IMG/VR virus record: IMGVR_UViG_3300027714_000050 | Span: 1-36,631 of that record | Strand: one strand, 5' to 3' | DNA: 36,631 bases | Origin: a virus | Taxonomy: Duplodnaviria; Caudoviricetes | Shown: positions 3,773-25,324 of the stretch, piece after piece | Layout of the letters: each line of letters opens with the position of its first letter | Numbering within the stretch: position 1 is the stretch's first letter | Position numbers and translations under genes: made by a program | The notes under the pieces: generated by a model | Told to the model about the DNA's origin: nothing | Database searches by the model: none | Seen by the model: only the letters and a program-made list of their open reading frames with translations

Positions 3773-3968
3773 TATAGGTAAAGATTATAAGAATGACGCT
3801 ATGCACTATGCCGTGGGGCAAGAAGTGTATGGTGGTCATACTATATGCGATATACTAGAAGAAGAAAACAAATTCTCTGTTTATATTAAAAAAGGTAAAG
3901 ATGTACTGCCTTGGAAAGACTTTAATAAGAACATGGCTGTATCAGTAGAGTATAACTTACAATACTAA
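3747..3968 (+). CDS. Small hypothetical phage protein
   Basis: 73 aa, LIRKISIGKDYKNDAMHY; overlaps the previous gene by 26 nt and is TAATG-coupled to the next. Confidence 0.7.
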   Translation: MAKLIRKISIGKDYKNDAMHYAVGQEVYGGHTICDILEEENKFSVYIKKGKDVLPWKDFNKNMAVSVEYNLQY

Positions 3969-4579
3969 TGAAAAGCATTCGTGATTTTGTTGTATCACCA
4001 AAAGGAGAAAGATATAGTAACACTAAAAAATTAGATAACGGAGAGCTTATACTAAACACTGAAATTTATAACCATCAGTATGTTAATAGAGAGGCAACTG
4101 TAGTATCTACTCCAATACTAGGTCATGCTGACATAATGCGTGGTGATACGGTTTTGGTTCACCATAACGTATTTAGAAGGTGGCATGATGTTAAGGGTGT
4201 TGAAAAAAATAGTAGAAGCTACTTTAATGAATCAACTTATTTTATAGGTGAAGACCAAATTTTCTTATATAAAAGAGATAATGAATGGATTTGTCCTAAA
4301 GGATATTGTTTTGTAGCACCATTAAAATCTACAGATCAATTTAATGTTGAATCTGAAAAACCTTTACAAGGTATCGTTAAATATTCAGATGGTACAGTTG
4401 AAGTAAACGATCTAGTTGGTTTTAGACCAAGTAGTGAATACGAGTTTATCGTTGATGGCGAAAGACTATATCGAGTTAAATCTAATTTTATTACAATCAA
4501 ATATGAACATCAAGGAAACGAAGAGAAGTATAATCCAAGCTGGGCACAAGGCGGTAGAGGAGCTAATAAAAGTAGCTAG
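3968..4579 (+). CDS. GroES-like co-chaperonin, probably two tandem GroES-like folds
   Basis: DFVVSP...GELIL...ATVVSTP...IxxGDTVLV, then a second unit CFVAP...GIVKY...VEVNDLVGF...YEFIVDGERLY. Sits upstream of terminase. Confidence 0.6.
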   Translation: MKSIRDFVVSPKGERYSNTKKLDNGELILNTEIYNHQYVNREATVVSTPILGHADIMRGDTVLVHHNVFRRWHDVKGVEKNSRSYFNESTYFIGEDQIFLYKRDNEWICPKGYCFVAPLKSTDQFNVESEKPLQGIVKYSDGTVEVNDLVGFRPSSEYEFIVDGERLYRVKSNFITIKYEHQGNEEKYNPSWAQGGRGANKSS

Positions 4580-4778
4580 AGAAGAAATAGTTGACTCAAG
4601 CGAAGACTTAACTGCTGATAAACTAAAAAACGCAGCGGCAACTAAAAAACTAGCTATATTTGACGCATTTGAAATACTTAACAGAATACAAGAAGAAGAA
4701 GACTTGCTTGAGGGTAAAACACCTAAAGAGGCAAAGGAAAAAATCTTTAAAGGATTCGCAGAAGGTAGATCTAAATAA
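4503..4778 (+). CDS. Putative terminase small subunit (start re-assigned to ATG 4503, MNIKETK...)
   Basis: Short helical protein directly upstream of, and TAATG-coupled to, the large terminase. ATG 4503 has an A-rich leader, and a 4416 start would overlap the previous gene by 164 nt. Confidence 0.5.
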   Translation: MNIKETKRSIIQAGHKAVEELIKVAREEIVDSSEDLTADKLKNAAATKKLAIFDAFEILNRIQEEEDLLEGKTPKEAKEKIFKGFAEGRSK

Positions 4779-6991
4779 TGTACAAGCAAAGTTTAGTTAA
4801 AACGGTTGAGCCTATAAAAAAGACTACAATCAGTCGGCTTAACAAGGGTAAGAAATGGAAGTACGGATACGATAAAGAGCATGATATTATTATACTATCT
4901 CACAGCGGTCAGATAGGAGAAATAATAGAAATACAAAACTTAGTCATCGCTCTACCTAAGGTACCTAAGGATGTGTATAGCAACTCTAAAGATAAGTGGG
5001 TTAAGTTTGAGCAGCCAAAAGAATTAGAGCGCTTAAAGAACATCTTTGATTGGCGCGCGTACCCGGAAGATCAGAAAGATCAATGGCACGACTATATAGA
5101 TGAGGAGTTCAGAAGAAGAGAAGAAGGTTTTTGGTTTACTAATAACGGTAAGCCAACTTGGATAACAGGTACTCACTATATGTACTTGCAGTGGAGTAAG
5201 ATAGATGTAGGTGCAGCAGATTTTAGAGAAGCAAATAGATTATTCTTTATATTCTGGGAAGCTTGTAAAGCAGATAAAAGATGCTACGGTATGTGCTACC
5301 TTAAAAATAGAAGATCTGGGTTTTCCTTTATGTCTTCGGCTGAAACCGTTAATTTAGCTACTCTTGCGAGTGATAGTAGATATGGAATACTATCTAAATC
5401 AGGTGCTGATGCTAAAAAAATGTTTACCGACAAAGTTGTCCCTATATCAATCAACTACCCATTCTTTTTTAAACCTGTCCAAGATGGTATGGATCGCCCT
5501 AAATCCGAATTGGCTTACCGTGTACCTGCTAGTAAGTTTACTAGAAAAAAAATCACGGCTAATGAAAAGCTGGAAGATATACAAGGATTAGATACAACAA
5601 TTGACTGGAAGAATACAGGAGACAATAGTTATGATGGTGAAAAATTAGCCCTTTTAGTACATGATGAAAGTGGTAAATGGGAAAGGCCAGACAATATATT
5701 AAATAACTGGAGAGTTACAAAAACTTGTTTAAGATTAGGTAGTAGAATTATTGGTAAGTGTATGATGGGATCAACATCAAACGCTTTAGATAAAGGAGGT
5801 GAAAACTTTAAAAAACTATACAATGCTTCAGATGTTACAAAAAGAAACAGAAATGGCCAGACAAAGTCTGGTTTATACTCTTTGTTTATCCCAATGGAAT
5901 GGAACTACGAAGGATTTATTGATGAGCACGGAGTTCCAGTTTTCACTACTCCTAATGTCGATAAGTTCGACCCAAGCGGTGAACTAATAGATGTAGGTGT
6001 AATAGATAACTGGCAGAATGAAGTAGATGGTTTAAAAGATGACCAAGACGGTTTAAATGAATTTTACCGCCAGTTTCCTAGAACTACAGAGCACGCGTTT
6101 AGAGATGAAACTAAAGGAAGTATATTTAATCTTGTTAAGTTGTACGAGCAGATAGATTATAATGAAGAGATGTCAAGGACACTAGGTGTTACTCAAGGTA
6201 ACTTTCAATGGGTTAACGGTGTTAAAGATTCACAGGTTATATTTTACCCAGATCCAAAAGGTAGGTTTAAAGTTAGCTGGGTACCATCTCAACAATTACA
6301 AAATAGAGTTATAATTAAAAACGGCATTAAGTATCCTGGCAACGAACATATGGGTGCCTTTGGTTGTGATAGTTATGATATATCAGGAACAGTAGATGGT
6401 GTTGGGTCTAAAGGAGCTTTACACGGTTTGACTAGATTTTCAATGGAAGATGCTCCGGCTAATAGTTTTTTTTTAGAATACTTATCAAGACCACCAACAG
6501 CAGAAATGTTTTTTGAAGATGTTTTAATGGCTTTGGTTTTCTACGGGATGCCAATATTAGCAGAGAATAACAAACCACGTTTGTTGTACTACTTAAGAAG
6601 AAGAGGATACAGAGGGTTTAGTATGAATAGACCTGATAAAATATGGAATAAACTATCTGTAGCAGAAAAAGAAGTTGGTGGTATACCAAATTCAAGCGAA
6701 GATATAAAGCAAGCACACGCAGCTGCGATTGAAATGTACATTCAAGATCACGTGGGTATAAAGCAGGATGGAACTCACGGTGATTGTTATTTTAATGAGT
6801 TAATAAACGACTGGACAAAGTTCGATATAAACAAAAGAACAAAGCACGATGCTTCAATAAGTTCTGGTTTAGCAATTATGGCTAACAACAGACATTTATA
6901 CGCGCCAAACGCAAGCGTTAAAAAACCTAAGTTAAATATAAACGTTTCCAGATACACAAACACTGGAAATAATTCACAAATAATCAAATAA
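4778..6991 (+). CDS. terL: Terminase large subunit
   Basis: Walker-A-like YLKNRRSGFS, Walker B LLVHDESGK, coupling motif MGSTSN, RNase H-like nuclease FGCDSY ... AENN ... HDA. Confidence 0.92.
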   Translation: MYKQSLVKTVEPIKKTTISRLNKGKKWKYGYDKEHDIIILSHSGQIGEIIEIQNLVIALPKVPKDVYSNSKDKWVKFEQPKELERLKNIFDWRAYPEDQKDQWHDYIDEEFRRREEGFWFTNNGKPTWITGTHYMYLQWSKIDVGAADFREANRLFFIFWEACKADKRCYGMCYLKNRRSGFSFMSSAETVNLATLASDSRYGILSKSGADAKKMFTDKVVPISINYPFFFKPVQDGMDRPKSELAYRVPASKFTRKKITANEKLEDIQGLDTTIDWKNTGDNSYDGEKLALLVHDESGKWERPDNILNNWRVTKTCLRLGSRIIGKCMMGSTSNALDKGGENFKKLYNASDVTKRNRNGQTKSGLYSLFIPMEWNYEGFIDEHGVPVFTTPNVDKFDPSGELIDVGVIDNWQNEVDGLKDDQDGLNEFYRQFPRTTEHAFRDETKGSIFNLVKLYEQIDYNEEMSRTLGVTQGNFQWVNGVKDSQVIFYPDPKGRFKVSWVPSQQLQNRVIIKNGIKYPGNEHMGAFGCDSYDISGTVDGVGSKGALHGLTRFSMEDAPANSFFLEYLSRPPTAEMFFEDVLMALVFYGMPILAENNKPRLLYYLRRRGYRGFSMNRPDKIWNKLSVAEKEVGGIPNSSEDIKQAHAAAIEMYIQDHVGIKQDGTHGDCYFNELINDWTKFDINKRTKHDASISSGLAIMANNRHLYAPNASVKKPKLNINVSRYTNTGNNSQIIK

Positions 6992-6996
6992 TAAAT

Positions 6997-9423
6997 ATGG
7001 CAGAGTCTGGCATTAAAAGTTATTTCCCAAGTCAAACGGTTAGCGATGCTGAAAAGCTAAGCTACGACTATGGATTAAAAGTAGGTAAAGCTATAGAGCA
7101 AGAGTGGTTTAGTAACGATAGAGGTTCTAATAGATATAAATCAAACCACAATGATTTTCATAATTTAAGGCTATACGCTAGAGGCGAGCAGTCTGTTCAA
7201 AAGTATAAGGATGAGTTATCTATAAACGGTGATTTGTCCTATCTTAATTTAGATTGGAAGCCTATTCCAATTATATCTAAATTTGTTGATATTGTTGTTA
7301 ACGGAATTTCAGAAAGAACTTATGATATAAAAGCATACTCTCAATCTCCTAACGGCGTTGAAAAACGCACTAAATACATGGAAGCCATACAGAGCGACAT
7401 GGAGATGCAGCAGTTCAATCAAGAAGTGAAGTCTAGGTTTGATGTAGATATGAAAGAAAGTAGCATAGCTAATGAAGATTTACCGGAATCTAGTGAAGAG
7501 CTAGGTTTACACATGCAGCTTAGTTATAAACAGGCAGTTGAACTTGCTGAAGAACAAGCTTTAAATGTTTTATTTGAAGGCAACAAGTACGAGTTAATAA
7601 AAAAACGCTTTTATCAAGATTTAACTATACTAGGTATTGGAGCTGTAAAAACAGGATTCAATACATCTCAAGGTGTTGTTATTGATTATGTTGATCCAGC
7701 AAACTTAGTTTACTCATACACTGAATCACCTTATTTTGAAGATATATATTATGTAGGTGAAGCAAAAACAATTCCAGTAAATGAGTTAGCAAAAGAGTTT
7801 CCTCATTTAACAGCAGAAGATCTAGAGGATATAATGAAAAATAAGTCTAATAATAGATCTAACTACAACTCATCTCACAGTTACGACAAAGAAGACAACA
7901 ACACTGTTCAGGTTTTGTATTTTAACTATAAGACTTATATGAATGAAGTTTATAAAGTTAAAGAAACCAGTAGTGGTGCTGATAAAATTATACCAAGAGA
8001 CGATCAGTATGATCCACCAGAAAATAAAGAGGGTGGGTATAGTAGGATGTTAAGATCTATAGAGTGTCTTTATGATGGGGCTATGATTCTTGGCACTGAT
8101 AAATTACTTAAGTGGGAAATGGCTAAAAACATGATGAGGCCTAAAAGTGATTACACTAAGGTTAAGATGAATTACGCTATTGTAGCTCCAAGAATGTATA
8201 ACGGTAAAATTGATTCTCTTGTTAGAAGAATAACTGGTTTTGCTGATATGATTCAACTTACACACTTGAAATTACAACAAGTATTATCAAGAATGGTTCC
8301 AGACGGAGTTTATCTTGATGCCGATGGATTAGCCGAAGTTGATTTGGGTAATGGTACTAATTATAATCCTCAAGAAGCATTAAACATGTTTTTTCAAACT
8401 GGTTCGGTTATTGGAAGAAGCTTTACCTCTGAAGGTGATATGAATCCAGGTAAAGTACCTATTCAAGAAATAACAAGTGGTAGTGGTGGTGGTAAAATGC
8501 AGGCTCTTATAGGTAACTACAACTACTACATGCAGATGATAAGAGATGTGACTGGTCTTAACGAAGCTAGAGATGGAAGCACTCCAGATAAAAACGCTTT
8601 AGTTGGAGTTCAAAAACTAGCTGCCGCAAACTCTAACACAGCAACTAGACATATATTGCAAGCTGGTTTATTTTTAACCGCTGAAACAGCAGAGTGTTTA
8701 TCTCTTAGAATATCTGATATCATAGAGTACTCACCAACCAAAGAAGCTTTTATACAAGCTATTGGTGCGCATAACGTAGCAACTTTAGAAGAAATGTCTG
8801 AACTGCATCTTTATGATTTTGGTATATTCATAGACTTACAACCAGATGAAGAGGAAAAAGGTAGATTAGAAAACAATATACAAATGGCGTTGCAACAAAA
8901 AAGTATAGATTTAGAAGATGCTATTGATCTTAGAGAAATAAGAAATATTAAGCTCGCAAATCAAATGCTTAAAATGCGTAGAAAGAAAAAAGAGCAAAAA
9001 GATAGAAAGCTTCAAATGGAAAACATACAAGCGCAAACAGAATCTAACGCTAAATCTGCTCAAGCCGCAGCTCAAGTTGATGTTCAAAAAAACCAAGCGT
9101 TAAACGCTGGTAAAGCAGAGTTAATGAAAATGGAGTCTCAAATTAACTCTCAAAAAATGATGCAAGAAGTAGAAATGAAAAAGCAATTAATGGGCTTAGA
9201 GTTTCAGTACAACATGCAATTAAAAGGCGTTGAGGTTGAAGGTAAAAAATCAGGAGAAAAAGAAAAAGAAGATCGTAAAGATGAAAGAACAAAAATTCAA
9301 GCAACTCAACAAAGCGAGATGATTGAACAAAGAAATGCTGGGAAACCACCTAAAAACTTTGAGTCTGCCGGTAATGATATACTAGGTGGCGGATTTGATT
9401 TGGGTAGTTTTGATCCTAGTTAG
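6997..9423 (+). CDS. Portal protein
   Basis: 808 aa directly after terL. Contains PIPIISKFVDIVVNG and IRDVTGLNEARDG motifs and a long Q/K/E-rich C-terminal coiled coil (barrel). Confidence 0.88.
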   Translation: MAESGIKSYFPSQTVSDAEKLSYDYGLKVGKAIEQEWFSNDRGSNRYKSNHNDFHNLRLYARGEQSVQKYKDELSINGDLSYLNLDWKPIPIISKFVDIVVNGISERTYDIKAYSQSPNGVEKRTKYMEAIQSDMEMQQFNQEVKSRFDVDMKESSIANEDLPESSEELGLHMQLSYKQAVELAEEQALNVLFEGNKYELIKKRFYQDLTILGIGAVKTGFNTSQGVVIDYVDPANLVYSYTESPYFEDIYYVGEAKTIPVNELAKEFPHLTAEDLEDIMKNKSNNRSNYNSSHSYDKEDNNTVQVLYFNYKTYMNEVYKVKETSSGADKIIPRDDQYDPPENKEGGYSRMLRSIECLYDGAMILGTDKLLKWEMAKNMMRPKSDYTKVKMNYAIVAPRMYNGKIDSLVRRITGFADMIQLTHLKLQQVLSRMVPDGVYLDADGLAEVDLGNGTNYNPQEALNMFFQTGSVIGRSFTSEGDMNPGKVPIQEITSGSGGGKMQALIGNYNYYMQMIRDVTGLNEARDGSTPDKNALVGVQKLAAANSNTATRHILQAGLFLTAETAECLSLRISDIIEYSPTKEAFIQAIGAHNVATLEEMSELHLYDFGIFIDLQPDEEEKGRLENNIQMALQQKSIDLEDAIDLREIRNIKLANQMLKMRRKKKEQKDRKLQMENIQAQTESNAKSAQAAAQVDVQKNQALNAGKAELMKMESQINSQKMMQEVEMKKQLMGLEFQYNMQLKGVEVEGKKSGEKEKEDRKDERTKIQATQQSEMIEQRNAGKPPKNFESAGNDILGGGFDLGSFDPS

Positions 9424-9450: not shown

Positions 9451-10641
9451 ATGGAAGAAAAGTTAGAAGAAGTAGTTGAAGAAACTACACAAGCAAACCA
9501 ACAAGATCCTGGTGATCAAAACGTAGTTAAGGTTGATGAAAGTAAATTTGAGTCTGCAGGTGACGATAGCGTTATAAAAGTAGATTTAAGTAAACCCCCA
9601 ACACCAAAACAAGATGAAGTTAAAGAAAGTAACGCTGACAACGGCGGAGTGGTTGATGGCGTTGAAAATGCCGACACCACACAAAAACAAGAAGAAGTAC
9701 AACCGGAAGCACAAGCACAAGAAGCTCCAGTATTAGAAGAAATCACTGAAGAAGAAGTTGAAAAGGTTGAAGAAGCTATAGCGGAAGCCCAAGCTACCGG
9801 AAAAGCATTACCAGAAAATATTCAAAAGTTAGTTGACTTCATAGAGGAAACTGGCGGTGATATTAGTGACTATGTAAAGCTTAATCAAGACTATAGCAAA
9901 TTAGATGATACTAGTTTATTATACGAATACTACAAGCAAACAAAACCTCATTTAGATGCAGAAGAAATTAACTTCCTTATGGAAGATACATTCTCATTCG
10001 ACGAAGATGAAGACGACGATAGAGATATACGTAGAAAGAAATTAGCGCTTAAAGAGCAAGTTGCCAGCGCTAAAAGCCACTTAGACGGGCAAAAGTCTAA
10101 ATACTATGAAGAAATTAAAGGTGGATCAAAGCTTACAACTGAGCAACAAAAAGCTGTTAATTTCTTTGATAGGTACAACAAGGAGTCAGAAGTAACTCAA
10201 AAAGCAATGAAGCAAAATACAGATGTTTTTACCCAGAAGACCGAGCAGGTTTTCAATGACAAGTTCAAAGGTTTTGAATACAATGTTGGGGATAAAAAAT
10301 ATAGGTTTAACGTTAACAACGCTAACGAGGTTAAGAATACTCAAAGTGATATAAGTAATTTTACCAAAAAGTTTTTGGATAAAAATAACACATTATCAGA
10401 CGCTAAGGGTTATCATAAATCTCTTTACACAGCTATGAACGCAGATGCCGTTGCAAAACACTTTTACGACCAAGGTAAAGCCGATGCTATGAAAAATAGT
10501 ATTGCTAAAGCCAAAAACGTTGATATGAATCCAAGACAAGCTCATGGTAAAATTGAAGCGGGTGGCGTAAAGTATAAAGTGTTAGGGCAAGATTCTTCTG
10601 ATTTTAAGTTTAAAATTAAAAACAATAAATTTAAAAATTAA
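9451..10641 (+). CDS. Capsid scaffolding/assembly protein
   Basis: Acidic low-complexity N-terminus and helical core; located between portal and major capsid genes. Confidence 0.7.
   Translation: MEEKLEEVVEETTQANQQDPGDQNVVKVDESKFESAGDDSVIKVDLSKPPTPKQDEVKESNADNGGVVDGVENADTTQKQEEVQPEAQAQEAPVLEEITEEEVEKVEEAIAEAQATGKALPENIQKLVDFIEETGGDISDYVKLNQDYSKLDDTSLLYEYYKQTKPHLDAEEINFLMEDTFSFDEDEDDDRDIRRKKLALKEQVASAKSHLDGQKSKYYEEIKGGSKLTTEQQKAVNFFDRYNKESEVTQKAMKQNTDVFTQKTEQVFNDKFKGFEYNVGDKKYRFNVNNANEVKNTQSDISNFTKKFLDKNNTLSDAKGYHKSLYTAMNADAVAKHFYDQGKADAMKNSIAKAKNVDMNPRQAHGKIEAGGVKYKVLGQDSSDFKFKIKNNKFKN
9614..9736 (+). CDS. Candidate overprinted 40-aa basic ArfA-like ORF in the +1 frame of the scaffold gene
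   Basis: ATG 9614 to TAG 9734-9736 encodes MKLKKVTLTTAEWLMALKMPTPHKNKKKYNRKHKHKKLQY. A-rich leader with A at -3 and -6. Confidence 0.5.
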   Translation: MKLKKVTLTTAEWLMALKMPTPHKNKKKYNRKHKHKKLQY

Positions 10642-10652
10642 AAAACAAAATT

Positions 10653-12161
10653 ATGGCAATTACACCAGGAACTAATTTGAATAGCACGCCTGCCGCAAGT
10701 CAGATCGCGCTATCTACAAATTATCTAGACCTCAACACTTCAACAGGTTGGGCACAACAATATTTACCAGATCTTATGGAAAAAGAAGCTGAAGTTTTCG
10801 GACCGAGAACTATTTCAGGATTTCTTTCACAAGTAGGAGCTGAAGAAGCGATGTCTGCTGATCAAGTTATTTGGTCTGAGCAAGGTCGTTTACATTTATC
10901 TTACAAAGGTAAGATTGTAACAGGTGACACTAATGATGGAGCCAACACAGGTGTGGCTGTAACTACAATGGTAACAATAGAGCAAGACATGGATGGTAAT
11001 GCTAAAACTACTGACCATGGTATTAGAGTGAATGACACTGTCATCATCGCTAACGCCGCTGGTGTTCACAAGTGTTTAGTTGTTACTGCTGCCGCTAACA
11101 CAGCTACTATTGACGTTGCTCCTTATGGATCGGCTGCAATTGCTGATAGCAATGCTTCTTTGTCTTGTACTATACTAGTTTATGGTTCTGAGTATGGAAA
11201 AGGAGTTAAGTACATGACTGGTGGAGCCGCAACAACTCAAGAAGATTCTAGAGGTGCTAACGAACCACAATTCTTTACTTACTCTAACAAACCAATCATC
11301 TTAAAAGATTACTACGAAGTATCAGGTTCTGATGCGTCTAGAATTGGATGGGTTGAAACTGCTTCTGAAGCTGGTGGTACTGGTTACATGTGGTACTTAA
11401 AAGCTGAAGCTGATACAAGAGCTCGATTTACTGATTACTTAGAAATGGCTATGCTAGAAGGCGAATTAAATGACGCTACATCTGTTATCGACGGATCTGT
11501 TACAATTCCTGCTTCTGTAGCTGGCGCTGGACAAGTTGGTACTGAAGGTTTGTTTGCTGCTATCGAATCAAGAGGTAATTTAACTTCTGGTATTACTGGA
11601 GTTAACGCTGCTACTGATTTAGCTGAGTTTGACGCTATCTTAGCTGAGTTTGATAAGCAAGGTGCTATTGAGGAGAACATGATGTTTGTAAACAGAGCTA
11701 CTTCGTTGGCAATGGATGACATGTTAGCTTCTATGAATTCTTATGGAGCTGGTGGTACTTCTTACGGAGTATTTGACAATTCTGAAGATATGGCATTGAA
11801 CTTAGGTTTTTCTGGTTTCAGAAGAGGTTCTTACGACTTCTACAAGTCTGACTTCAGGTACTTAAATGACTTAGCAACAAGAGGTGGTATTAACGCTGCT
11901 AACGCTGCTAACGCTATTAGAGGGGTCATTATCCCAGCTGGTACTTCTACGGTTTACGACCAACAATTAGGAAAGAATCTTAAAAGACCTTTTTTACACG
12001 TTCGTTATAGAGCTTCTGCAACTGATGACAGAAAAATGAAGACATGGACTACTGGTTCGGTTGGAGCTGCTACATCTGCTTTAGATGCAATGCAAATCCA
12101 CATGTTGTCAGAAAGATGTTTGATTACACAAGGTGCTAACAATTTCATGTTGATGAAATAA
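10653..12161 (+). CDS. Major capsid protein
   Basis: 502 aa after the scaffold, with strong GCT/GGT/ACT codon bias of a highly expressed gene, WAQQYLP, WSEQGRLH and GTEGLFAAIESRG motifs, and a downstream terminator. Confidence 0.88.
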   Translation: MAITPGTNLNSTPAASQIALSTNYLDLNTSTGWAQQYLPDLMEKEAEVFGPRTISGFLSQVGAEEAMSADQVIWSEQGRLHLSYKGKIVTGDTNDGANTGVAVTTMVTIEQDMDGNAKTTDHGIRVNDTVIIANAAGVHKCLVVTAAANTATIDVAPYGSAAIADSNASLSCTILVYGSEYGKGVKYMTGGAATTQEDSRGANEPQFFTYSNKPIILKDYYEVSGSDASRIGWVETASEAGGTGYMWYLKAEADTRARFTDYLEMAMLEGELNDATSVIDGSVTIPASVAGAGQVGTEGLFAAIESRGNLTSGITGVNAATDLAEFDAILAEFDKQGAIEENMMFVNRATSLAMDDMLASMNSYGAGGTSYGVFDNSEDMALNLGFSGFRRGSYDFYKSDFRYLNDLATRGGINAANAANAIRGVIIPAGTSTVYDQQLGKNLKRPFLHVRYRASATDDRKMKTWTTGSVGAATSALDAMQIHMLSERCLITQGANNFMLMK

Positions 12162-15274: not shown

Positions 15275-18200
15275 ATGCCAGAGATTAAAAACACTTTTGT
15301 TGGGGGTAAGATGAATAAAGATCTTGATGAAAGATTAATGCCTAATGGACAATATAGAGATGCTTTAAACGTAGAGGTTTCTACTGCAGAAGGACCTGGT
15401 ATCGGTGTTGTTAAAAACATATTAGGTAATAAAAGACTTGAAAGTATAATTCCAGATAAGTTTACTTGCGTAGGATCTATTGCAGACGAAAAAAATAATA
15501 AGTTATATTGGTTTATTACAACCCATGAAAAAGATGCTATTATTGAATATGATATTGCTAATGATTTAGTTCTACCTGTTGTTGTTGATACAAACTCTAG
15601 TAACTCTAAAGCTGTTTTAAGATTTGGAGTTACACCTATTATAACCGGTATAAACATAATAGACAATTTATTGTTTTGGACTGATAATTTAACTGATCCT
15701 AAAAAAATAAATATAGATGAGTGTAAAAAAGGAACTTTAAACATTGATACTCACACTCAATTAACATTTGAAAATGGTAGTTTTGAAGGAGTAACTATAG
15801 AAAACGTTGTGATGACACACACTGGTGTTAACAACAATGGATTGAACTTTTTAATAAAAAACGCTTTGGGTGGTAGGTATTTTTTCTTCAATGCTAAGCA
15901 AATAGGTAGGGCTTTGGGTTACGAAGGCGCGCCCCCTGACGCGCAACATTATTTTGTTCGCCAGTACAGGAATGGTTTATTTTTAAGAAGAGTTTTAGTC
16001 AAGCTGTGGACAGCAACTGATCAAAGCGGGCAATCACAGAATGGTACTCACGGTAGAGTTGCACACACTTCTCCTGATTTTCAACACGATGGCTCTAGCT
16101 CTGACAGTAATATAGTATCTGCTTCTAATGGAATAGGTTATTATGACACGCAGTTAAATCCTGATTTTATAGTAGGTGATATACTTTACGGTGATAATGT
16201 AAGTGTAGATATAGAAGAAAGACATATAACAGTTATAAAGCCAAAACCTCTTTTAGCCCCTTCTTTTAAAATAAACCACGATAAGTACAAAGGTGTTGAA
16301 GCCCGTTTTTCCATCAAAAAAAACACAAACTCTACAAGAAATATACCTAATTTATTTGAAACTAAGTTTCCAAGGTTTGCTTATAGATACAAGTTTAGAG
16401 ATGGAGAGTTTTCTGCTTTTTCACCCTTTACTGCTGTTGTTTTTAATCCAGCATATCCAAAGGATATAAACAACTCTATAGAAACCAACGTTTTTTATAA
16501 TAAGGATAATTCTTACGATATAAAAGATCCTAGTAACAAGGCTATGGCTAATTCAATACACTCTATTGAGTTAACTGATTTTATTACATACCATACGCCC
16601 GAAGATGTTATTGAAGTTGATATTTTATATAAGCAAGAAAACTCTAGTGTTATTTATTCTATCGCAACAATTAAACATAATGACCCAGAGTGGCATTTAC
16701 CAGGTAACACACAGGGTTATGATTTAGGTTATAACAAAACTATACGATATGCTCCCGATAATTTTATAGCAAATGGAGGTTTTACTAAGGGTAAGTTTGT
16801 TATTACTACAGAAAACATATATGCAGCTTTACCTGCCAACCAATTGCTTAGGCCATTTGACAATGTTCCAAGAAGAGCGTTAGCTCAAGAAGTAACTGGT
16901 AACAGAGTTGTTTACGGTAATTATTTGCAAAACTACAATTTAGGAAATCATAAAACTAAAATGAGTGCTGTTTACGGACAAAGAAATAATATTAACACCT
17001 TTGAAGCACAGGGACTACCATCTATAAAATCTCAAAGAAACTATCAATTAGGCGTTATTTATTGTGATGAACACGGTAGAGAAACACCGGTATTCACTTC
17101 AAATAAGAGCGCTGTTGCTGTGCCTTGGGCTAATGTTAATGGTTTAAAAAATGCAAGCCAAAGCAATCAACTTAGTACTAGTATAACCGCTGACTTTCCA
17201 CGGTGGGTTGATTCAATAAAATTTTACGTAAAAGAAACCTCTAACGAGTACTATAATTTAGTAATGGATAGAGCTTGGGTTGTTCAAAAAACCTACGAAT
17301 TAGACAACTCAGAAGGTCACATGTGGATTTCTTTTCCATCTTCTGACAGAAATAAAATCTCAGAACAAGATTATATTATACTAAAAAAACAAGTTGGAGC
17401 AGGGCAAGAGCAAGTCCAAGATGAAAATAAGTTTAAGATAATAGATATTTCCAACGAAGCTCCTGACGCAATAAAATATGAATTAGTAAATCAAGGTGTA
17501 ACTAACACTGAAGCTGAAACAGCTGCATTATTCGCGGATGTTGGTACTGGTGGAGAAAGACCTGATAACGCTGGTACTAACAATTTGTTTATTAACGTAG
17601 AGGCTTGGTCTAAAGGTAATAGTTTCATGGGAATTCCATTTAATGATGGTGATCCTGATATAGTAGGACCCAACACAAGAGTAAAGTTAGATGGTCTTTA
17701 TGTTTCTTGGTTTAGATTAAATCCCAACCAAAGCCAAGCATCTAAAAAATATAAAGTATTATCTGGTAGATTGGTTAGTGGTGCGGAAAATATAATGTTA
17801 AAGCTTGCTAGTGATATAACACAAATAGATGCTGACATAGCACACATCGACAATGTTTCACCAGCAGGATTTGATCCAGCAACCAATATGCATGGTGACA
17901 TTAGGTTTCAAATAGAGAAAAAAGAAGAAAAAACAGGTGAAGATTTTTCTGGTTCATTTTTTGTAAAAATATCAAAAAACCAAGTTACAGAGCTTATTGA
18001 ATCAGGAAGTAAAACTAACATTATAACTGATCATTCAGTGTCAGCTAAAACGCCGATTTTTTGGTGGAGAGATGAGATAGCTGGTGACACTGGTAGTACT
18101 GGAACTACTAATGAAATTAGAACAAATGATGATGATTATGGGCTTGCAACCTACTCTGGACTTGGTAGTCTTGCTGATGATGGAGCTGGAGACATGGCAA

Positions 18201-21200
18201 GCGACAATAGTGTTCACCATGCAGACAATAACACCGTAGGTTTTGTCGGTGGTCCTTACCATACTACTGATATAAGGTTAACTGATTATGCGGAGGCTTG
18301 GGCTGGCATACAACAAAATTATTGCGGCGGGAATAATAAAGGTGTATTCTTTTTAGATTCCATGCACATGGTTGCTGGTCAATCTGAAGCCAGTAACTAT
18401 GCTAAATATTGTTGTGTTACTTGGTCTGGCGCTGCTGGTGATAGTGCATCTGGTAGTAACATTATCCAGGGTGATTCTGCTTGGAGTTATCCCCCATTAA
18501 AATCTTGGCTAGGCACATATAGTAACGATAAATCGGTGGTAGATGATTTATTAGCAGGTGTAAGTGGTCAAGGATTATTGTCAACTTCTCCAGTAAAAGC
18601 CGAAAACGAAGACTACGAAGATAAAAAATTAGATGGTTGGGTTGGACACCCCCAATACGTTAAGCGAAGAATTCAAGAAGCTGATCCCGCTTATGCTCAA
18701 CATGCTGGATTAACACACGTTAACGGTTTAGAGGGTGTAGTTACCTCCAACGTAAACCACTCAAAACGAGCTAGAAGATGGTTTAGCGGAATAACTAGTG
18801 GTCAAACCGAAGATGGCAATGGGGTTGATACTAAAACTTATTCTAATGACGATGAAGAAGGAAGGCACTTTATGCATTTATCATTTTTTGCTCCAGGAAA
18901 AGACTTAACTGGAGATGCATCATCATTTTCAGATATTCCTGGCTCATTTGAGTTATTTGGCGAACGGGCTGTTGGTAATAGATTGCAAGGTATATGGGGT
19001 GGAGGACATTTTACTGGTGAAAACCCTAGTGATGTATTTGGTGCCGGAACAGTAAAGCACTCTCAAATATGTATGGAAGGTAATTACGATGACAATGGAG
19101 GTTATCTTGATGAACCGCCTGGTCCTGGCGTTGGTTTTGGTTATGATATAAGATATAAAGAACTTCACGAAAGACAATGGGATCCAACTTTTCCTTCTGA
19201 CCCTAATAATAGAACACGTGATTTTATAAGAAAATTACATACGGGCTCTCAGTTTAAGTTTAAGCCAAACTTATATGAAACCATGTCGGTTGCCAACAAG
19301 CAAAAAGCTAATGAAACTATTTACACTATAAAAAGTGTTTCTATCAAAAAATTATATAATCATACTTCCTGGAGAAACACGTTTAATAGATGGGAATACG
19401 GCGAGGGTTATAAAGCTCCAAATGATGATAGAGCTTATTGGTCTGTAGAAAGAGCAACTATGAATTGGCTTACGCATATAAAAGACAATGGCATAAAAGA
19501 ATATTCTACGCAGTGGGCAACGGATTCTGATTTAATGAGAGACAAATTAATTGATTTTGGTGCATCTCACAATAGAAGACTTTGTTATATAATAGAGTTG
19601 GATAAAGATCCAGATCATAACGAAAACTTTAACCCTATACAAGAAGGTATGGGTGTGGGTTTATTAACTGCTGATCTGGATAATAATGAGTTTCACAATA
19701 TTGAATTTTTAGAAAAAACCAAAAAAGTAGCTGGAGTTGGTGATTTAAATAAATTCCCAGCAATATGGGAGACTAGTCCAGAAAAACAAGAGGTAGATTT
19801 AGATATATATTTTGAAGCTAGTAGTAACATACCTGTTAGGCTTAACGAAAGAACAAATGAAATACTTGCTCCATTAGGTTGTTTTGTTGAACTTGTAGAT
19901 GCTCCTGTTTCAGGCACATCATATTTGATAGATTGGAACGGTTTCGAGGCTACTTTTGAACCTGGTTTTCCACTAACAGATGGAACAAACGAAATAGATT
20001 ACTCTAACGCTTCTTTTAAATTTATTAAAGGTGATGGTGGATATGTTACTGCAAGGGCAGATACAAATATACTAACTGGTTTTTCAAATGATCCTCTTGC
20101 TAAAAGAAAAACAATAGTTTTTAGAGAAGATATCGCGGAGGTTATGAATGTTGGTTTAGCTTGGAATAATTGCTTTTCATTTGGAAATGGTTTAGAATCT
20201 AATAGAATTCAAGATGACTTTAATAAAATGTTTATGCAGAATGGAGTTAGAGCATCAATAACTACACAGCAAACATACGAGGAAGAACGTAGGTCAACAG
20301 GGTTGATATATTCTGGGCTTTATAACTCTAACTCAGGTATAAACGATCTTAATCAGTTTATAATGGCTGAGAAGATCACTAAGGACTTAAATCCTACGTT
20401 TGGTAGTATACAAAAGCTATTTCAAAGAAGAATTAGTTTGGTTGCTTTTTGTGAGGATAGAGTTGTTAGTATAATGTCAAACAAAGATGCTATATATAAC
20501 GCTGATGGAAACCCACAGTTAATATCATCTAACAACGTGTTAGGTGACGCAAATCCTTTTGAAGGTAATTTTGGTATATCTAAAAATCCAGAATCATTTG
20601 CATCAGAATCTTACAGGGCTTACTTTACAGATAAAAACAGAGGAGCCGTTATTAGATTATCTAAAGATGGTTTGACACCAATATCTAGCGCTGGTATGCA
20701 TGATTGGTTTAGAGATAATTTAACTAAATACGATGCTTTGATAGGTTCGTTTGATAGTTACAAAGAAGACTACAATATAACCTTATCAGATTCTTTTGGA
20801 GAAAATCTTTTGTTCAATAGTAAAGTTAGTAGTGGGGTTGATCAAGGCACTGTGTCTGGTGGATTTGTAAATAATATAGAAAATCCTAGTGTTTATAATG
20901 GTGATAACATGACATATCCTTATCAAAGTGTTGATATGCTAGACCATGTTGATTTTACATGGGGTAGTAATAACTCCTCTTTATTGAGCACTGGTAGAGT
21001 AACTAATCACGCGGAAATTTTGGTTGGTGGTGTTTATGAGGGTCAAAGTTTTGAGGGTACTACATATAATACGAGCGCTTACTCAAATCAAAGTTACAGT
21101 GATATTGTAGATGAAAGTACTCCGGGTGAATACACTTCTTATCAATATAATTATGATGATACATTGTTAGAGGAAAACGGAGGTAATTACACTGAAACTT

Positions 21201-24200
21201 CTCAGATATATTTAGATAGTTTTGGTATAACTTTCACTGAAAACTTAACGCAGGTTAGTTACAACGCTATAGTTTATGATAACAAACCTTCATATGTTAC
21301 GGGTTTTGGCAATATTGCAGATAGTGGAATTCTTTTTTCAGGTATTTTTGATGATGGAGCAATTGGAACGCTAACACTTTTTGAAAGTGATAATAATACG
21401 CCGTTACTTTATGGTAATAGATACTGTAATCCAACTAGACGTTTTAGGGCAGGTCTTCCTACACTTGTATACCCAAATAACAGTGTCCTTTATTATAATC
21501 TTATTTACACCCCACATCCTAACTCAACTTATATAACTGATGGTACGTTTGGTAGTTACAACAGTACAAATGAAGTAACTGGTTTTCCTTCATATGATAG
21601 CGGAAATGGTAAAAAGTATTTATTGGGTTGGATTTTCAAAACATCCAGTGGTAGGATTATTTTTAATAAACTGTGGAACAGTCAAGATGTTTGGGATGAT
21701 TGGGTTGAGTTTAGGGATCTTGGGTTTAATTCTTACGATTGGGATGGAACATACAGCCAAACCGCAACCCCGTTAATGAATCAAGAGTATGACACTGCGG
21801 TTAGTAATTCAACGCTACCTGGTTTGCTTACTGACATCAATGATTCAGCTCTTGCAAGCAGCTTTTTTGATCCTGGCAATGTACCAAACTCAATATATAA
21901 CGGTGAAGAAATAAAAGTTACGCTTAGGTTTAGAGTGCCAGCAAGTTATAATAATTCTCCTCCTCCTATGGTGTACAATAATTCTGGAACTACTCTTCCT
22001 AGTTCATTCAATCACATTATACCTAGAATAGAGCTTAGGGATGGTCCTGGTGATGGTGTAGGTACCGTTATACCACCTAACGTAATAAAAGGTGTTGAAT
22101 CAATTCTTACTTTTCCTTCGACTGGTGGGTTTAAGCCGCACGGTAGTAAAGATATTAACAACGAAAATTACAATGCAAATTTCAGTATACAAACCAATGC
22201 TTATACAACTAACTTGGATCTTGCAGTAAACGCTCTTGGTTGGAGTTCTTCTGGAACTCTAAGCTATGACTTTGAGCACTTGAAAGGTTTTTCGCCCTCA
22301 AGTATTGTAGATTTTCCTCTTACACATTTTGGACCAACACCAACCGCAACTAATAGTGGTTATGGAGATCTATTCGATCAAATAGATCAACAAGGGCGGA
22401 CAGATCCTAATGTTACACACGCGATTTATTCGTGTTCAGTATACTTTAAATTTACAGATCCTAACCAAAGTATTTTGTTACCAACAAACGGGATTGTTGA
22501 TTTTATAGACACGTCTTCAATTGAAGTTGAATCAAGAATTGTTGTTCAAGATTTAGTTGTTAGAGTAGGTCAAGTTAATCCAGATGTTTACACTAGTTAT
22601 TGGCCACTAACTGGTACTGAACCTCTTAAACCACAGTGGGAAATAATATCTCTTGATGTTGAAAAAGTAGTTAATGTAACCGCACCACAATCTTATTTGT
22701 TAGGAGGAATTAGCAGTAATACAGATGCGGTTGTTGGAAACACCGGTACACCAGGCGTAGTAGATAGTAATGGCCAACCTTTTATCGATAAAATACCCAC
22801 CGATGCAGAAGGAGCAATTCCCGCTTGGACTGAAGTTCAAAACATGGGTATAAATGGTTGGGCTAGCGCTACGATGTTAGGAACTAACAACTCTCAATTG
22901 CAACAAGAAGTAGAATTTGGTAACACATATTCTGGGTTAGTGAAAAGTAGAGAAGCTGGTGGACAAACTTATAATTGGTTAGAGCCAGATTTAACTTTAG
23001 ATGCCAGTATTCACGGTACCACTGGTTACACGGGTTATAACGTTCTACCAGCTGTATCAGGTACAATACTTGAAGAGCTTGAAGCAGGTGATTTAATTAC
23101 AGACTTTGCAAACGAATACTATAGAGTGCAACAATCAGGCACCGATGCAATGTTTGACTTAACATATACTCTTTCTAATGCAAACAAATGGGAAGATAAT
23201 CACTGGTATTTAATAGATGTAGAGTTTGAAGGAGATGAGGTTCCCGATGGTGACAGTTTAACAGGTACTGGTAGTGGTCATGGTAAGTTAGTTATTGTAG
23301 GCGTAACCAATCTTCCAGCTGGTGGTGTTCACGGTGACATTGTTGATAGCCGAGGAGTTGGTACTCATTCTACAACCACTATTGTGGGTTCAACACCACA
23401 AGCAAACATAGAGCTAGTTCCAACAGAAAGAAATGAGTATGGTAATGTAAATGGCTCTGGTGATGGAAAAATTGTTTTAAGAGCGATTTTTAAAGTTCAC
23501 GAAAATAGCTTCGTGGCTTCAACATCTGTGGAAAGACTAAAACTAAAGTTAAGGTTTGCTAGGTTTACCATTGGCACTAAAATAACAAAAATAATTTCTA
23601 AAAAATTATCTAAACTACCTAATGGTGGAGAAGCTGAAAGCTGGACACACTCGTCAGACACTACCGTGCACTCGCTACAAAAAAGATCAATGTACTTTGA
23701 CAATCTGTCTGTTGGAATAGGCTCTGCATTAATGTGGGAAAACAGGCAGACAACAGGAAGTTCAGGAACCAGTTCTTGGGATCAAACATTTGCTCCAGGA
23801 AATGCACCGCAAACTTCAGGTAAACACTGGAGACTTCGTTTTAAGGTTAGTGATAACCCAAATACAGAATCGATGACTGGTAGTTTAAATTGCATTATAC
23901 AGAATGATTTTGGTGATTTTGCTTCTGGACAATGTAACGGGATGCTATTGACTGGAATAACCGATCCTGGTACTTATGAGTTTACGTTTAACATAGGTGG
24001 TCCTGATGGAGGTGATGGTTTTAATGCGGTTGATGATGAAGGAAATCCTGTTTGGAAAGCCAGTAAAATAAACGATGCTAGTTGGACACCAAGCCAATTT
24101 AGAGTTAGTGGATACACAACTACCTCAAGCTTAAAAAATAAAATCAGGTTTTGGGGAGGTACTGATGGTTCAAGCCCATTGACATGTGCTGTTAGTGAAA

Positions 24201-25324
24201 TTTTATTAACTGATGAAACAGAAGTTTTAACAGGTGGTACAGCTAACTCTTGGAGTTGGAATGGTTTTGACGATGCTTTAGAGAGTTATATTTTTTGGAA
24301 CCAAGAATTAGGTAGGATTGAATATACAGCTTGCCCTGTTATTGACCCATTATACAACGTTGGTGGCGCTGCTGAACAAATAAGTGTAAGCCAATTTATT
24401 GAACTACCTATTAAAAAAGGCGAAAGGTATAAGGTAAGCGTGAAGCACGAAATAAGTGAGGGTAGATTAGGTGTTTACTACTATAATGCTCAAGGATTTG
24501 GATTTAGAATGTTTGATATAGGACCTGGTGCTGGTACATCTACTGGTACTTTTGTTGTTGGAGAATATCAGTGGAGTAGCTTAAACCCTGCTGATAATTC
24601 ATATTTACCTGAGTTAAAAAGTACTTTTGTTATAAGACAACACGATGACAGTCCAGAAGTCAATGGTAATATTGACGACATAACTATGATGAGGCAATAT
24701 GATTTAACACAACAACAACCAATTACTGTTTCTTTTAATGAAAGAATAAATGGATGGACTAGTTTTAAAAGTTTTGTACCAGAAAGTGGTTTAAGTTTAT
24801 CTAAAAAATACTTTACGTTTTTAAACGGTGGTTTATGGCAGCATTACATGCCCATGCAGTATAACACTGCTTTAGGAAAGTGGGATACATCTTCTGTTGA
24901 AGATGCTACAAACTATAATATATTTTACAATAATAACTATGATTATAATAAGCCGGCAAGTATAACAGCTGTTTTAAACAATGAGCCCTCGGTAGTAAAA
25001 GTATTTAACACTTTAAACTACGAAGGAAGTCAATCTTTAGTTAAAGTTCCACAAACAATTGGATCAATCACGGCGGAAGCTCAAGTAACAATAAATAACG
25101 TTATTGCCTGGAACAACGTGCACAGTGGAGTACGTAATCACATTATGGGTTGGAGTTGCTCTAGCATACAAACCGATTTAGAAGCTGGTTCTGTAAATAA
25201 TTTTATAAAAAAAGAGGGCAAGTGGTTTGGCTACATAAAAGGACTTGAAACAGATAAACCTATAGACACTATGCTTTTTAGCGTACAGGGTATTGGCATC
25301 GCAAGTAGTGTAACGCCGATATAG
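15275..25324 (+). CDS. Giant tail muzzle/stabilisation protein (3349 aa) with large insertions
   Basis: GKMNKDLDERL, ITGINIIDNLLFWTD, GNRVVYGNY, FGISKNPESFA, AYFTDKNRGAVIRL, GWTSFKSF and FIKKEGKWF blocks recall crAss-like/P22 gp10-like tail nozzle proteins; position after the ring genes. Confidence 0.7.
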   Translation: MPEIKNTFVGGKMNKDLDERLMPNGQYRDALNVEVSTAEGPGIGVVKNILGNKRLESIIPDKFTCVGSIADEKNNKLYWFITTHEKDAIIEYDIANDLVLPVVVDTNSSNSKAVLRFGVTPIITGINIIDNLLFWTDNLTDPKKINIDECKKGTLNIDTHTQLTFENGSFEGVTIENVVMTHTGVNNNGLNFLIKNALGGRYFFFNAKQIGRALGYEGAPPDAQHYFVRQYRNGLFLRRVLVKLWTATDQSGQSQNGTHGRVAHTSPDFQHDGSSSDSNIVSASNGIGYYDTQLNPDFIVGDILYGDNVSVDIEERHITVIKPKPLLAPSFKINHDKYKGVEARFSIKKNTNSTRNIPNLFETKFPRFAYRYKFRDGEFSAFSPFTAVVFNPAYPKDINNSIETNVFYNKDNSYDIKDPSNKAMANSIHSIELTDFITYHTPEDVIEVDILYKQENSSVIYSIATIKHNDPEWHLPGNTQGYDLGYNKTIRYAPDNFIANGGFTKGKFVITTENIYAALPANQLLRPFDNVPRRALAQEVTGNRVVYGNYLQNYNLGNHKTKMSAVYGQRNNINTFEAQGLPSIKSQRNYQLGVIYCDEHGRETPVFTSNKSAVAVPWANVNGLKNASQSNQLSTSITADFPRWVDSIKFYVKETSNEYYNLVMDRAWVVQKTYELDNSEGHMWISFPSSDRNKISEQDYIILKKQVGAGQEQVQDENKFKIIDISNEAPDAIKYELVNQGVTNTEAETAALFADVGTGGERPDNAGTNNLFINVEAWSKGNSFMGIPFNDGDPDIVGPNTRVKLDGLYVSWFRLNPNQSQASKKYKVLSGRLVSGAENIMLKLASDITQIDADIAHIDNVSPAGFDPATNMHGDIRFQIEKKEEKTGEDFSGSFFVKISKNQVTELIESGSKTNIITDHSVSAKTPIFWWRDEIAGDTGSTGTTNEIRTNDDDYGLATYSGLGSLADDGAGDMASDNSVHHADNNTVGFVGGPYHTTDIRLTDYAEAWAGIQQNYCGGNNKGVFFLDSMHMVAGQSEASNYAKYCCVTWSGAAGDSASGSNIIQGDSAWSYPPLKSWLGTYSNDKSVVDDLLAGVSGQGLLSTSPVKAENEDYEDKKLDGWVGHPQYVKRRIQEADPAYAQHAGLTHVNGLEGVVTSNVNHSKRARRWFSGITSGQTEDGNGVDTKTYSNDDEEGRHFMHLSFFAPGKDLTGDASSFSDIPGSFELFGERAVGNRLQGIWGGGHFTGENPSDVFGAGTVKHSQICMEGNYDDNGGYLDEPPGPGVGFGYDIRYKELHERQWDPTFPSDPNNRTRDFIRKLHTGSQFKFKPNLYETMSVANKQKANETIYTIKSVSIKKLYNHTSWRNTFNRWEYGEGYKAPNDDRAYWSVERATMNWLTHIKDNGIKEYSTQWATDSDLMRDKLIDFGASHNRRLCYIIELDKDPDHNENFNPIQEGMGVGLLTADLDNNEFHNIEFLEKTKKVAGVGDLNKFPAIWETSPEKQEVDLDIYFEASSNIPVRLNERTNEILAPLGCFVELVDAPVSGTSYLIDWNGFEATFEPGFPLTDGTNEIDYSNASFKFIKGDGGYVTARADTNILTGFSNDPLAKRKTIVFREDIAEVMNVGLAWNNCFSFGNGLESNRIQDDFNKMFMQNGVRASITTQQTYEEERRSTGLIYSGLYNSNSGINDLNQFIMAEKITKDLNPTFGSIQKLFQRRISLVAFCEDRVVSIMSNKDAIYNADGNPQLISSNNVLGDANPFEGNFGISKNPESFASESYRAYFTDKNRGAVIRLSKDGLTPISSAGMHDWFRDNLTKYDALIGSFDSYKEDYNITLSDSFGENLLFNSKVSSGVDQGTVSGGFVNNIENPSVYNGDNMTYPYQSVDMLDHVDFTWGSNNSSLLSTGRVTNHAEILVGGVYEGQSFEGTTYNTSAYSNQSYSDIVDESTPGEYTSYQYNYDDTLLEENGGNYTETSQIYLDSFGITFTENLTQVSYNAIVYDNKPSYVTGFGNIADSGILFSGIFDDGAIGTLTLFESDNNTPLLYGNRYCNPTRRFRAGLPTLVYPNNSVLYYNLIYTPHPNSTYITDGTFGSYNSTNEVTGFPSYDSGNGKKYLLGWIFKTSSGRIIFNKLWNSQDVWDDWVEFRDLGFNSYDWDGTYSQTATPLMNQEYDTAVSNSTLPGLLTDINDSALASSFFDPGNVPNSIYNGEEIKVTLRFRVPASYNNSPPPMVYNNSGTTLPSSFNHIIPRIELRDGPGDGVGTVIPPNVIKGVESILTFPSTGGFKPHGSKDINNENYNANFSIQTNAYTTNLDLAVNALGWSSSGTLSYDFEHLKGFSPSSIVDFPLTHFGPTPTATNSGYGDLFDQIDQQGRTDPNVTHAIYSCSVYFKFTDPNQSILLPTNGIVDFIDTSSIEVESRIVVQDLVVRVGQVNPDVYTSYWPLTGTEPLKPQWEIISLDVEKVVNVTAPQSYLLGGISSNTDAVVGNTGTPGVVDSNGQPFIDKIPTDAEGAIPAWTEVQNMGINGWASATMLGTNNSQLQQEVEFGNTYSGLVKSREAGGQTYNWLEPDLTLDASIHGTTGYTGYNVLPAVSGTILEELEAGDLITDFANEYYRVQQSGTDAMFDLTYTLSNANKWEDNHWYLIDVEFEGDEVPDGDSLTGTGSGHGKLVIVGVTNLPAGGVHGDIVDSRGVGTHSTTTIVGSTPQANIELVPTERNEYGNVNGSGDGKIVLRAIFKVHENSFVASTSVERLKLKLRFARFTIGTKITKIISKKLSKLPNGGEAESWTHSSDTTVHSLQKRSMYFDNLSVGIGSALMWENRQTTGSSGTSSWDQTFAPGNAPQTSGKHWRLRFKVSDNPNTESMTGSLNCIIQNDFGDFASGQCNGMLLTGITDPGTYEFTFNIGGPDGGDGFNAVDDEGNPVWKASKINDASWTPSQFRVSGYTTTSSLKNKIRFWGGTDGSSPLTCAVSEILLTDETEVLTGGTANSWSWNGFDDALESYIFWNQELGRIEYTACPVIDPLYNVGGAAEQISVSQFIELPIKKGERYKVSVKHEISEGRLGVYYYNAQGFGFRMFDIGPGAGTSTGTFVVGEYQWSSLNPADNSYLPELKSTFVIRQHDDSPEVNGNIDDITMMRQYDLTQQQPITVSFNERINGWTSFKSFVPESGLSLSKKYFTFLNGGLWQHYMPMQYNTALGKWDTSSVEDATNYNIFYNNNYDYNKPASITAVLNNEPSVVKVFNTLNYEGSQSLVKVPQTIGSITAEAQVTINNVIAWNNVHSGVRNHIMGWSCSSIQTDLEAGSVNNFIKKEGKWFGYIKGLETDKPIDTMLFSVQGIGIASSVTPI

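Follow-up and report, generated by a model that had tools for sequence, protein, structure and literature searches.

The locus and the nested reading frame

The window, which is the whole stretch of DNA analysed here, is a virus record of 36,631 bases that is about 66% complete. The genes and features that concern this work are listed below, with positions in the window.

4778-6991: terminase gene
6997..9423, + strand: portal gene (phrog_6547, E 1.9e-151)
9451..10641, + strand: gene of 396 aa that holds the nested ORF (here the host gene); the N-terminal region of its product is acidic, and its position makes it a putative capsid scaffold gene
9589..9613, + strand: A/C-rich unstructured leader of the nested ATG, with A at -3 and -6
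9614..9736, + strand: nested +1 gene of 40 aa, ATG to TAG, for an ArfA/DUF7230-like basic peptide
9641..9667, + strand: residues 10-18, predicted helix with conserved E12, W13 and small residue 16 (AlphaFold2 and alignment)
9671..9679, + strand: P20-x-P22, near-invariant in the nested-peptide family (alignment)
9683..9721, + strand: basic tail K24-K36 with Y29-x-R31-K32-x-K34-H35, gapless against K34-G46 of E. coli ArfA
10653..12161, + strand: virion structural protein (phrog_13704, head and packaging, E 1.6e-94)

The product of 10653..12161 is likely the major capsid protein, judging by position and size. The 396-aa protein is acidic and its gene has the portal gene on one side and the putative major capsid gene on the other, which is the placement of a scaffold. 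The name "scaffold" given in a preliminary description of this DNA thus holds for position but not for family, since the protein has no match in PHROG or NCBIfam and no meaningful match in Pfam. Its homologue in Flavobacterium phage elemoF, which lies between the portal and a virion protein, is annotated as "structural protein". Of the 87 phage records that match the terminase, 68 are labelled Flavobacterium, 15 Cellulophaga, 2 Tenacibaculum, 1 Maribacter and 1 uncultured, and the bacterial host of the window phage is therefore likely a marine flavobacterium (Flavobacteriaceae). The window holds no tRNA or tmRNA gene. It also carries a GroES-like gene (3968-4579) and two very large virion-type genes, which are an ORF of 3349 aa at 15275-25324 and a + strand ORF of at least 1910 aa at 30902-36631 that continues past the window end.

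The nested ORF is exactly as first described, with its ATG at 9614, a TAG that ends at 9736 and 40 aa in the +1 frame, and it spans codons 55-96 of the 396-aa ORF 9451-10641. The A at -3 and -6 before the ATG can be read from the sequence, in a linker that is itself A-rich. The folding energy of the 50 nt around the start is -0.1 kcal/mol, a value that just 2 of the 114 windows taken along the host gene also reach. In the available text of PMC6847099, the determinants of initiation in Flavobacterium johnsoniae are low structure and A at -3, and the near-unfolded start region of the nested ORF fits them. Initiation at the nested ATG is likely internal and independent of a Shine-Dalgarno sequence, as the leader sequence suggests. 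The codons of this region had been called CG-rich: GC content is indeed raised in the overlap (0.447 vs 0.342 in the remainder of the host gene), as is CpG (6 per 123 nt vs 27 per 1069 nt elsewhere), but GC3 of the host frame is not (10/42 vs 0.28 outside). Third-position T is scarcer in the overlap (9/42 vs 125/355 outside).

The AlphaFold2 model of the peptide has a single helix at residues 10-18, the remainder being extended, with a mean pLDDT of 84. The peptide stops on its own codon five residues past the K-H motif, without a hydrophobic extension, and the TAG directly after the tail is kept in 56/56 genes. K34 is invariant and H35 is present in at least 90% of an 86-sequence alignment, from which conservation was taken because the tail percentages of a larger set of 224 sequences, picked by the tail pattern, are partly circular.

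The scaffold gene also contains a conserved hairpin at 10042-10073, with a second stem at about 10081-10098. Synonymous codons are nearly fixed across host codons about 198-208, and compensatory changes are found at two stem pairs among 66 unique segments. The hairpin is also found in L071 and L075, loci that lack the nested gene, so it is a separate element; it is perhaps an RNA processing or regulatory site.

Codon-level evidence for the nested gene

Eighty loci were fetched by the scaffold protein and, together with the window, make a set of 81, near-duplicates included. The nested ORF is intact in 66 of them, broken in 1 by an internal stop (L042), lacking in 13 and cut off in 1, so the ATG and the stop, whose conservation the preliminary description had named as a check, are kept among scaffold relatives. 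The codon statistics cover the 64 of 79 parsed genes that have the N-terminal pattern, of which 61 are free of indels and 56 are unique. Variation falls on the third positions of the +1 frame, where entropy is 0.61, against 0.19 and 0.20 at the other two. The second check concerned synonymous variability, and the pooled pairwise dN/dS inside the overlap is 0.10 in the +1 frame, under selection, and 1.94 in the host frame (56 unique gap-free genes), ratios that are descriptive because the sets were chosen for having the ORF and the pairs share ancestry. Nine regions outside the overlap give 0.06-0.26 in the host frame and 0.8-2.0 in the +1 frame, which has frequent stops there. The reversal of selection between frames, from the overlap to the rest of the host gene, is unambiguous.

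Where a host codon for Leu, Val or Ile precedes a purine, a +1 stop results in 0/152 cases inside the overlap and in 1121/2527 outside. Across the 166 unique nested cores from all scans, amino-acid identity is 76% in the +1 frame and 56% in the host frame. These data bear on a reading in which the ORF is a by-product of Glu/Gln-rich DNA read in the +1 frame and no gene exists. The caveat that GAA/CAA-rich DNA yields Lys-rich +1 text had been raised at the outset, and it is fair for one genome: in 20,000 trials of synonymous reshuffling of the host codons the +1 frame stays open in 23%, and the choice of ORF-bearing, non-independent pairs also leaves room for it. A start together with Y-x-R-K-x-K-H appears in 0.09% of the same trials, a post hoc count. 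The ORF exceeds chance because of the comparison among relatives and not because its frame is open: the caveat does not explain the placement of variation on +1 third positions, the higher +1 identity, the complete avoidance of +1 stops or the existence of free-standing homologues. To the extent that sequence alone can decide, the comparison among relatives refutes the by-product reading, which keeps hardly any probability, and the nested ORF is almost certainly a real gene.

Ribosomal frameshifting from the scaffold frame, which would yield a fusion of the scaffold N-terminus to the peptide and no separate product, is also highly improbable. It could draw on a C-rich run before the nested start and on four proteins (P0018, P0020, P0025 and P0032) called as scaffold-like sequence joined to the peptide tail, but these differ in their join point and may be indel errors. 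An ATG is present in 165 of the 166 unique nested cores, at 24-35 codons from Y29, and is re-made at new positions as the N-terminus changes, and one locus has a GTG start. A +1 stop lies within one codon upstream of the ATG in 17 of the 166 cores, and the free-standing homologues start at the same place.

An exact-word protein search with the 40-mer returned nothing, and single-sequence searches with it found no match in NCBIfam, in PDB sequences or, by tblastn, in cultured phages, among which P0045 also had no match by tblastn. Twenty-four metatranscriptome runs contain small shares (0.08-0.13), and in the four of them that were examined assembled contigs of relatives span the overlap; such contigs give no strand or frame and have no silent control, and they are not counted as expression.

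Distribution, loss and related peptides in other phages

Scans with the peptide recover it in 74/74 new loci of one scan, each time as a +1 ORF inside the scaffold gene; in a later scan, 69 of 78 new loci have it nested in the scaffold and 9 have free-standing copies. It is retained in scaffolds with identity down to 33%. In a distant clade of 80 loci, chosen by a scaffold that lacks the ORF, it is present in 6 loci, all of a single lineage, absent from 68 and cut off in 6. A tree of scaffold C-terminal domains (109 representatives chosen from 283), with its root at elemoF, places the nested ORF as apparently ancestral in the clade of the window (support 0.97), where five lineages have lost it and two copies are broken, and in the sister clade three separate branches carry it and many do not, with 9 changes by parsimony. 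Some lineages have lost the gene as one whole. The copies of L042, L239 and L256-L261 are decayed, with internal stops or with a K-H remnant as all that is left (L239 has many uncertain bases), which makes these loci natural controls for gene loss.

At larger scale, the profile search finds 47 representatives among 1.84 billion, of which 44 were fetched and 3, which are long proteins, were excluded as likely chance, and 1877 clusters (90% identity) at E<=0.01 among 4550 candidates. A search of 185,579 species genomes gives 4 matches, each a phage contig inside a metagenome bin. The phage contigs L237, L238, L239, L242 and L236 come from bins labelled Woesearchaeota, Parvibaculum, Flammeovirgaceae and one further bacterium, and are likely mis-binned. 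The 301 genomes of the phylum of G001 give 2 matches, one a phage contig in a bin and the other weak (E 4e-4) within a 546-aa frame. A search for a host-encoded copy by phrog_18092, run without a positive control, gave 0/201. Among phages that lack the nested gene, a free copy was found in 0/5 whole genomes, again without a positive control, and in 0/2 partial contigs. The peptide, nested or free, thus represents a phage family and is dispensable, because 68 of the 80 distant-clade loci lack the gene and five of five whole genomes have no free copy.

The free-standing homologues are found in other, larger phages, where the neighbours, read from ORF lists, are metabolic, chaperone and unknown genes. 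Stops interrupt the -1 frame in 8 of 9 free-standing copies, and that of L226 overlaps a short upstream ORF. Overlap with a short upstream -1 ORF is often seen among free copies (fully in L226, 3919-4119; near 3956-3980 in L170; also in L199, L229 and L236), a hint that this gene overlaps others with ease. In a peptide tree of 32 columns, which has mixed support and lacks a true root, the 7 free-standing copies included are interspersed with 59 nested ones. The term "overprinted" used previously is accurate as far as nesting in the scaffold gene goes, but the free-standing homologues cast doubt on birth de novo inside it. Some of the larger phages have a second basic gene of 44-45 aa, with a product that ends in Y-R-G-Q-G, immediately upstream of their free-standing copy. 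The copies scanned have no Pfam or PHROG match, and the product is possibly another ribosome-directed peptide. Its positions are as follows.

L162, 3761-3895: 44-45 aa Y-R-G-Q-G gene
L199, 3735-3869: the same gene
L229, 3750-3887: the same gene
L236, 3741-3875: the same gene

The Pfam model DUF7230 (PF23876) scores the peptide at E 0.11 and 13.1 bits, below its 27-bit cut-off, and 22 of 44 relatives match it at E<=1, all below the cut-off, the best with 23.1 of 27 bits. The C-terminal N-K-K-K..R-K-x-K-H is common to the nested family, DUF7230 and PHROGs 2701, 6310, 18092 and 37108, which are matched by members of the family and are all of unknown function; phrog_37108 is also matched by E. coli ArfA. 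The N-termini differ, being an ArfA-like N-P-I-A-K in the DUF7230 type and L-T-x-x-E-W-x-x-A-L in the nested family. Neighbours of the peptide in the ESM Atlas include DUF7230 and ArfA clusters, which is a lead only.

When cultured phages were searched by tblastn with E. coli ArfA, 17 records matched. Nested copies in roseophages, all unannotated, are the following.

L247, 1189-1311 (CRP-212, MZ892988): ArfA-type ORF nested at +1 inside the acidic tail of the head-module gene gp38
L597 and L598, 722-862 (CRP-603 and CRP-2): nested ORFs of ArfA or DUF7230 type in the +1 frame of an acidic stretch of a head-module gene

Caulobacter phage Cr30 (KF301602) has an unannotated ArfA-type ORF at about 1170-1314 of L249, mostly between two annotated genes. 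Relatives of the gene that hosts the ORF in CRP-212 show such an ORF, by pattern, in 12 of 81 loci. At one site of the gp38-type gene, L247 and L255 pass the Pfam ArfA cut-off while L290 and L303 pass that of DUF7230, and because variants at one site pass either cut-off, the short K-K-K form is tied to ArfA, against which its profile probability is 91%. Five cultured phages were checked: the nested ORF is complete in CRP-603 and CRP-2, in CRP-9 the motif is present but no clear ATG is, and in HMO-2011 and CRP-1 the ORF was not found. In both roseophage host genes pN/pS is 0.16-0.19 in the +1 frame and 0.93-1.3 in the host frame (21 codons; 14 sequences each). Two scans that started from the nested peptides of roseophages returned 160 loci with 75 unique cores, made up of 5 nested and 40 free cores of the ArfA type and 28 nested and 2 free of the DUF7230 type; half of those 28 sit in the gene that precedes the major head gene of HMO-2011-type phages. 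None of five roseophage-type host proteins matches the scaffold of the window, and at least three non-homologous acidic stretches thus contain related nested peptides.

The location in the head module, which the roseophage copies share, and the small size and very basic nature of the peptide would suit a nucleic-acid-binding virion or assembly protein, which would be produced together with the scaffold, condense DNA or offset acidic charge and resemble ArfA by convergence. This is rather improbable, since the free-standing homologues do not lie beside recognisable head genes (by ORF lists, with no family scan), five whole related genomes build heads without the peptide, and conservation is position-specific (W13, P20, P22, N25, Y29 and H35), beyond what charge would require.

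Proposed function and comparison with known systems

The peptide probably binds the mRNA channel of the ribosome, and it is quite possibly, at a little under an even chance, a channel binder that rescues non-stop ribosomes in a release-factor-dependent way. In the proposed mechanism, ribosomes would begin internally at the unstructured A-rich leader on late head-module mRNA, and host ribosomes that have stalled on truncated messages would take up the peptide in their empty mRNA channel. Its basic tail and K-H motif would occupy the 16S-lined channel, and the E-W helix would take the place of the N-terminal half of ArfA at the decoding centre and position the host release factor, whose recruitment would free the stalled ribosomes. 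Degradation of host mRNA, or its cleavage by defence toxins, would supply many truncated messages; a link to anti-phage defence is speculation. The available text of PMC11633108 gives arfA in 0/1956 FCB-group and 0/2376 alphaproteobacterial genomes, and because it is absent from the FCB-group genomes surveyed, the phage would supply a factor that its host lacks. Nesting is likely cheap, because Lys codons in the +1 frame read as Glu, Gln or Lys in frame 0, which lets a basic peptide and a tolerant acidic linker share the same DNA.

ArfA (E. coli YhdL) is the nearest known system. The ArfA motif given in the preliminary description is present in the fetched E. coli sequence, and "ArfA-like" is borne out by profile similarity over about 20 C-terminal residues, but not by a match to Pfam ArfA, a GKGS loop or an equivalent of F25. 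Both peptides have an active core of about 40-47 aa and share K..Y-x-R-K-x-K-H in one ungapped register, and the short helix predicted before the extended basic tail of the nested peptide may correspond to that of ArfA. When the 224-sequence family is compared by hhalign with 26 ArfA sequences (that of E. coli and 25 more), 22 C-terminal columns align with a probability of 77%, which none of 60 column shuffles reaches, and against E. coli ArfA alone the probability is 11.6%; the aligned segment is short and Lys-rich and the N-terminal half is unaligned. Pfam ArfA (PF03889, cut-off 25.5 bits) matches neither the peptide at E<=10 nor 44 relatives at E<=1. In the gapless alignment of the family with ArfA, residues Y29, R31, K32, K34 and H35 correspond to Y39, R41, K42, K44 and H45 of ArfA, and K/R18 and hydrophobic residue 19 to R28-V29. 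The positions of ArfA G35, G37 and S38 hold N, K and K in the nested family, so the K-G-K-G-S loop is not found, and that of F25, present in 100% of the 26 ArfA sequences, is variable (D/E/Q/N). The position of E30 is a proline, within the strand that would bind RF2. None of the 26 sequences has a counterpart of P20, the position of P22 is Pro in 26% of them, and K-H occurs in only 57%. The predicted helix 10-18 sits about five residues nearer the tail than ArfA helix 15-24, with no sequence alignment there. Unlike ArfA, which is made from non-stop mRNA and repressed by trans-translation, the nested peptide has a P-x-P element, has its own stop and no hydrophobic tail, hence no non-stop regulation, and is phage-encoded and nested, in a likely host phylum without arfA.

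In the available text of PMC8012679, the basic tail and K-H motif of ArfA lie in the mRNA channel, while F25 and strand 27-30 contact RF2. The nested peptide seems to keep the channel half of ArfA and to replace the RF2 half. It is not a member of PF03889 but may work like ArfA, and "ArfA-like ribosome binder" is supported as a lead. The same division would suit a peptide that plugs the channel and recruits no release factor, as the tail is the part conserved with ArfA and the RF2-recruiting F25 and strand 27-30 are not; it might then hold or shield idle and stalled ribosomes, exclude tmRNA-SmpB or ArfB, or tune host shut-off. This is unlikely, since K/R18 and the hydrophobic residue 19 align with ArfA R28-V29, and E12 and W13 are strongly conserved, as expected of a partner surface. 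The differing N-terminus is compatible with rescue, as BrfA of Bacillus subtilis performs RF2-dependent rescue with an N-terminal helix unrelated to that of ArfA and a C-terminal K-H, which is the single feature common to ArfA and BrfA and is held in a channel pocket (available text of PMC8012679). Other functions of the nested peptide have together a small probability.

A joint reading, which is tentative and falls somewhat short of an even chance, is that a large class of ribosome-rescue peptides lies hidden in marine podoviruses and serves host groups with no known ArfA, that unrelated phages repeatedly nested these in the +1 frame of acidic head-module linkers, since a Lys-rich +1 frame is a Glu-rich frame 0, and that no ArfA-like factor before the family of the window would have been seen to work on Bacteroidota ribosomes, where it would contact the release factor through a new interface. 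If rescue is true, phages manage translation quality control in hosts without ArfA, and the family would show, by natural variation, which features of ArfA are indispensable. Cultured hosts exist for the roseophage copies, which makes function testable now. Gene callers miss nested genes, as seen from the lack of an exact-word protein match and from the unannotated copies of CRP-212, CRP-603 and CRP-2. Repeated nesting in three non-homologous genes is a clear example of a coding-level niche.

With BrfA, the peptide shares the C-terminal K-H and an N-terminal helix unlike that of ArfA; BrfA differs in having about 62 aa and in being made from non-stop mRNA, and the two were compared via PDB searches alone, which gave no match. 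The family profile has two chance matches in the PDB (E 2.3), and Foldseek gave 0 matches. Phage-borne ArfA-type peptides are described in the available text of PMC12753301 and PMC8953757: gp30 of pelagiphage HTVC027P, reported as highly expressed early and late, and g10 of Citromicrobium phage RXM. As far as these texts go, both differ from the nested peptide in that they match PF03889 and are ordinary genes, with function by annotation only. In the open-licence PMC and bioRxiv literature, no description was found of nested ArfA genes, of DUF7230 or of tested phage rescue factors.

Small genes that lie wholly inside another gene in a shifted frame are known from Rz1 in Rz of phage lambda and E in D of phiX174, and the nested gene has the same arrangement, out of frame and fully inside a larger gene. 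It differs from both in that it has free-standing homologues and dictates the shared sequence, and in that no fewer than three non-homologous host genes contain nested peptides related to its product.
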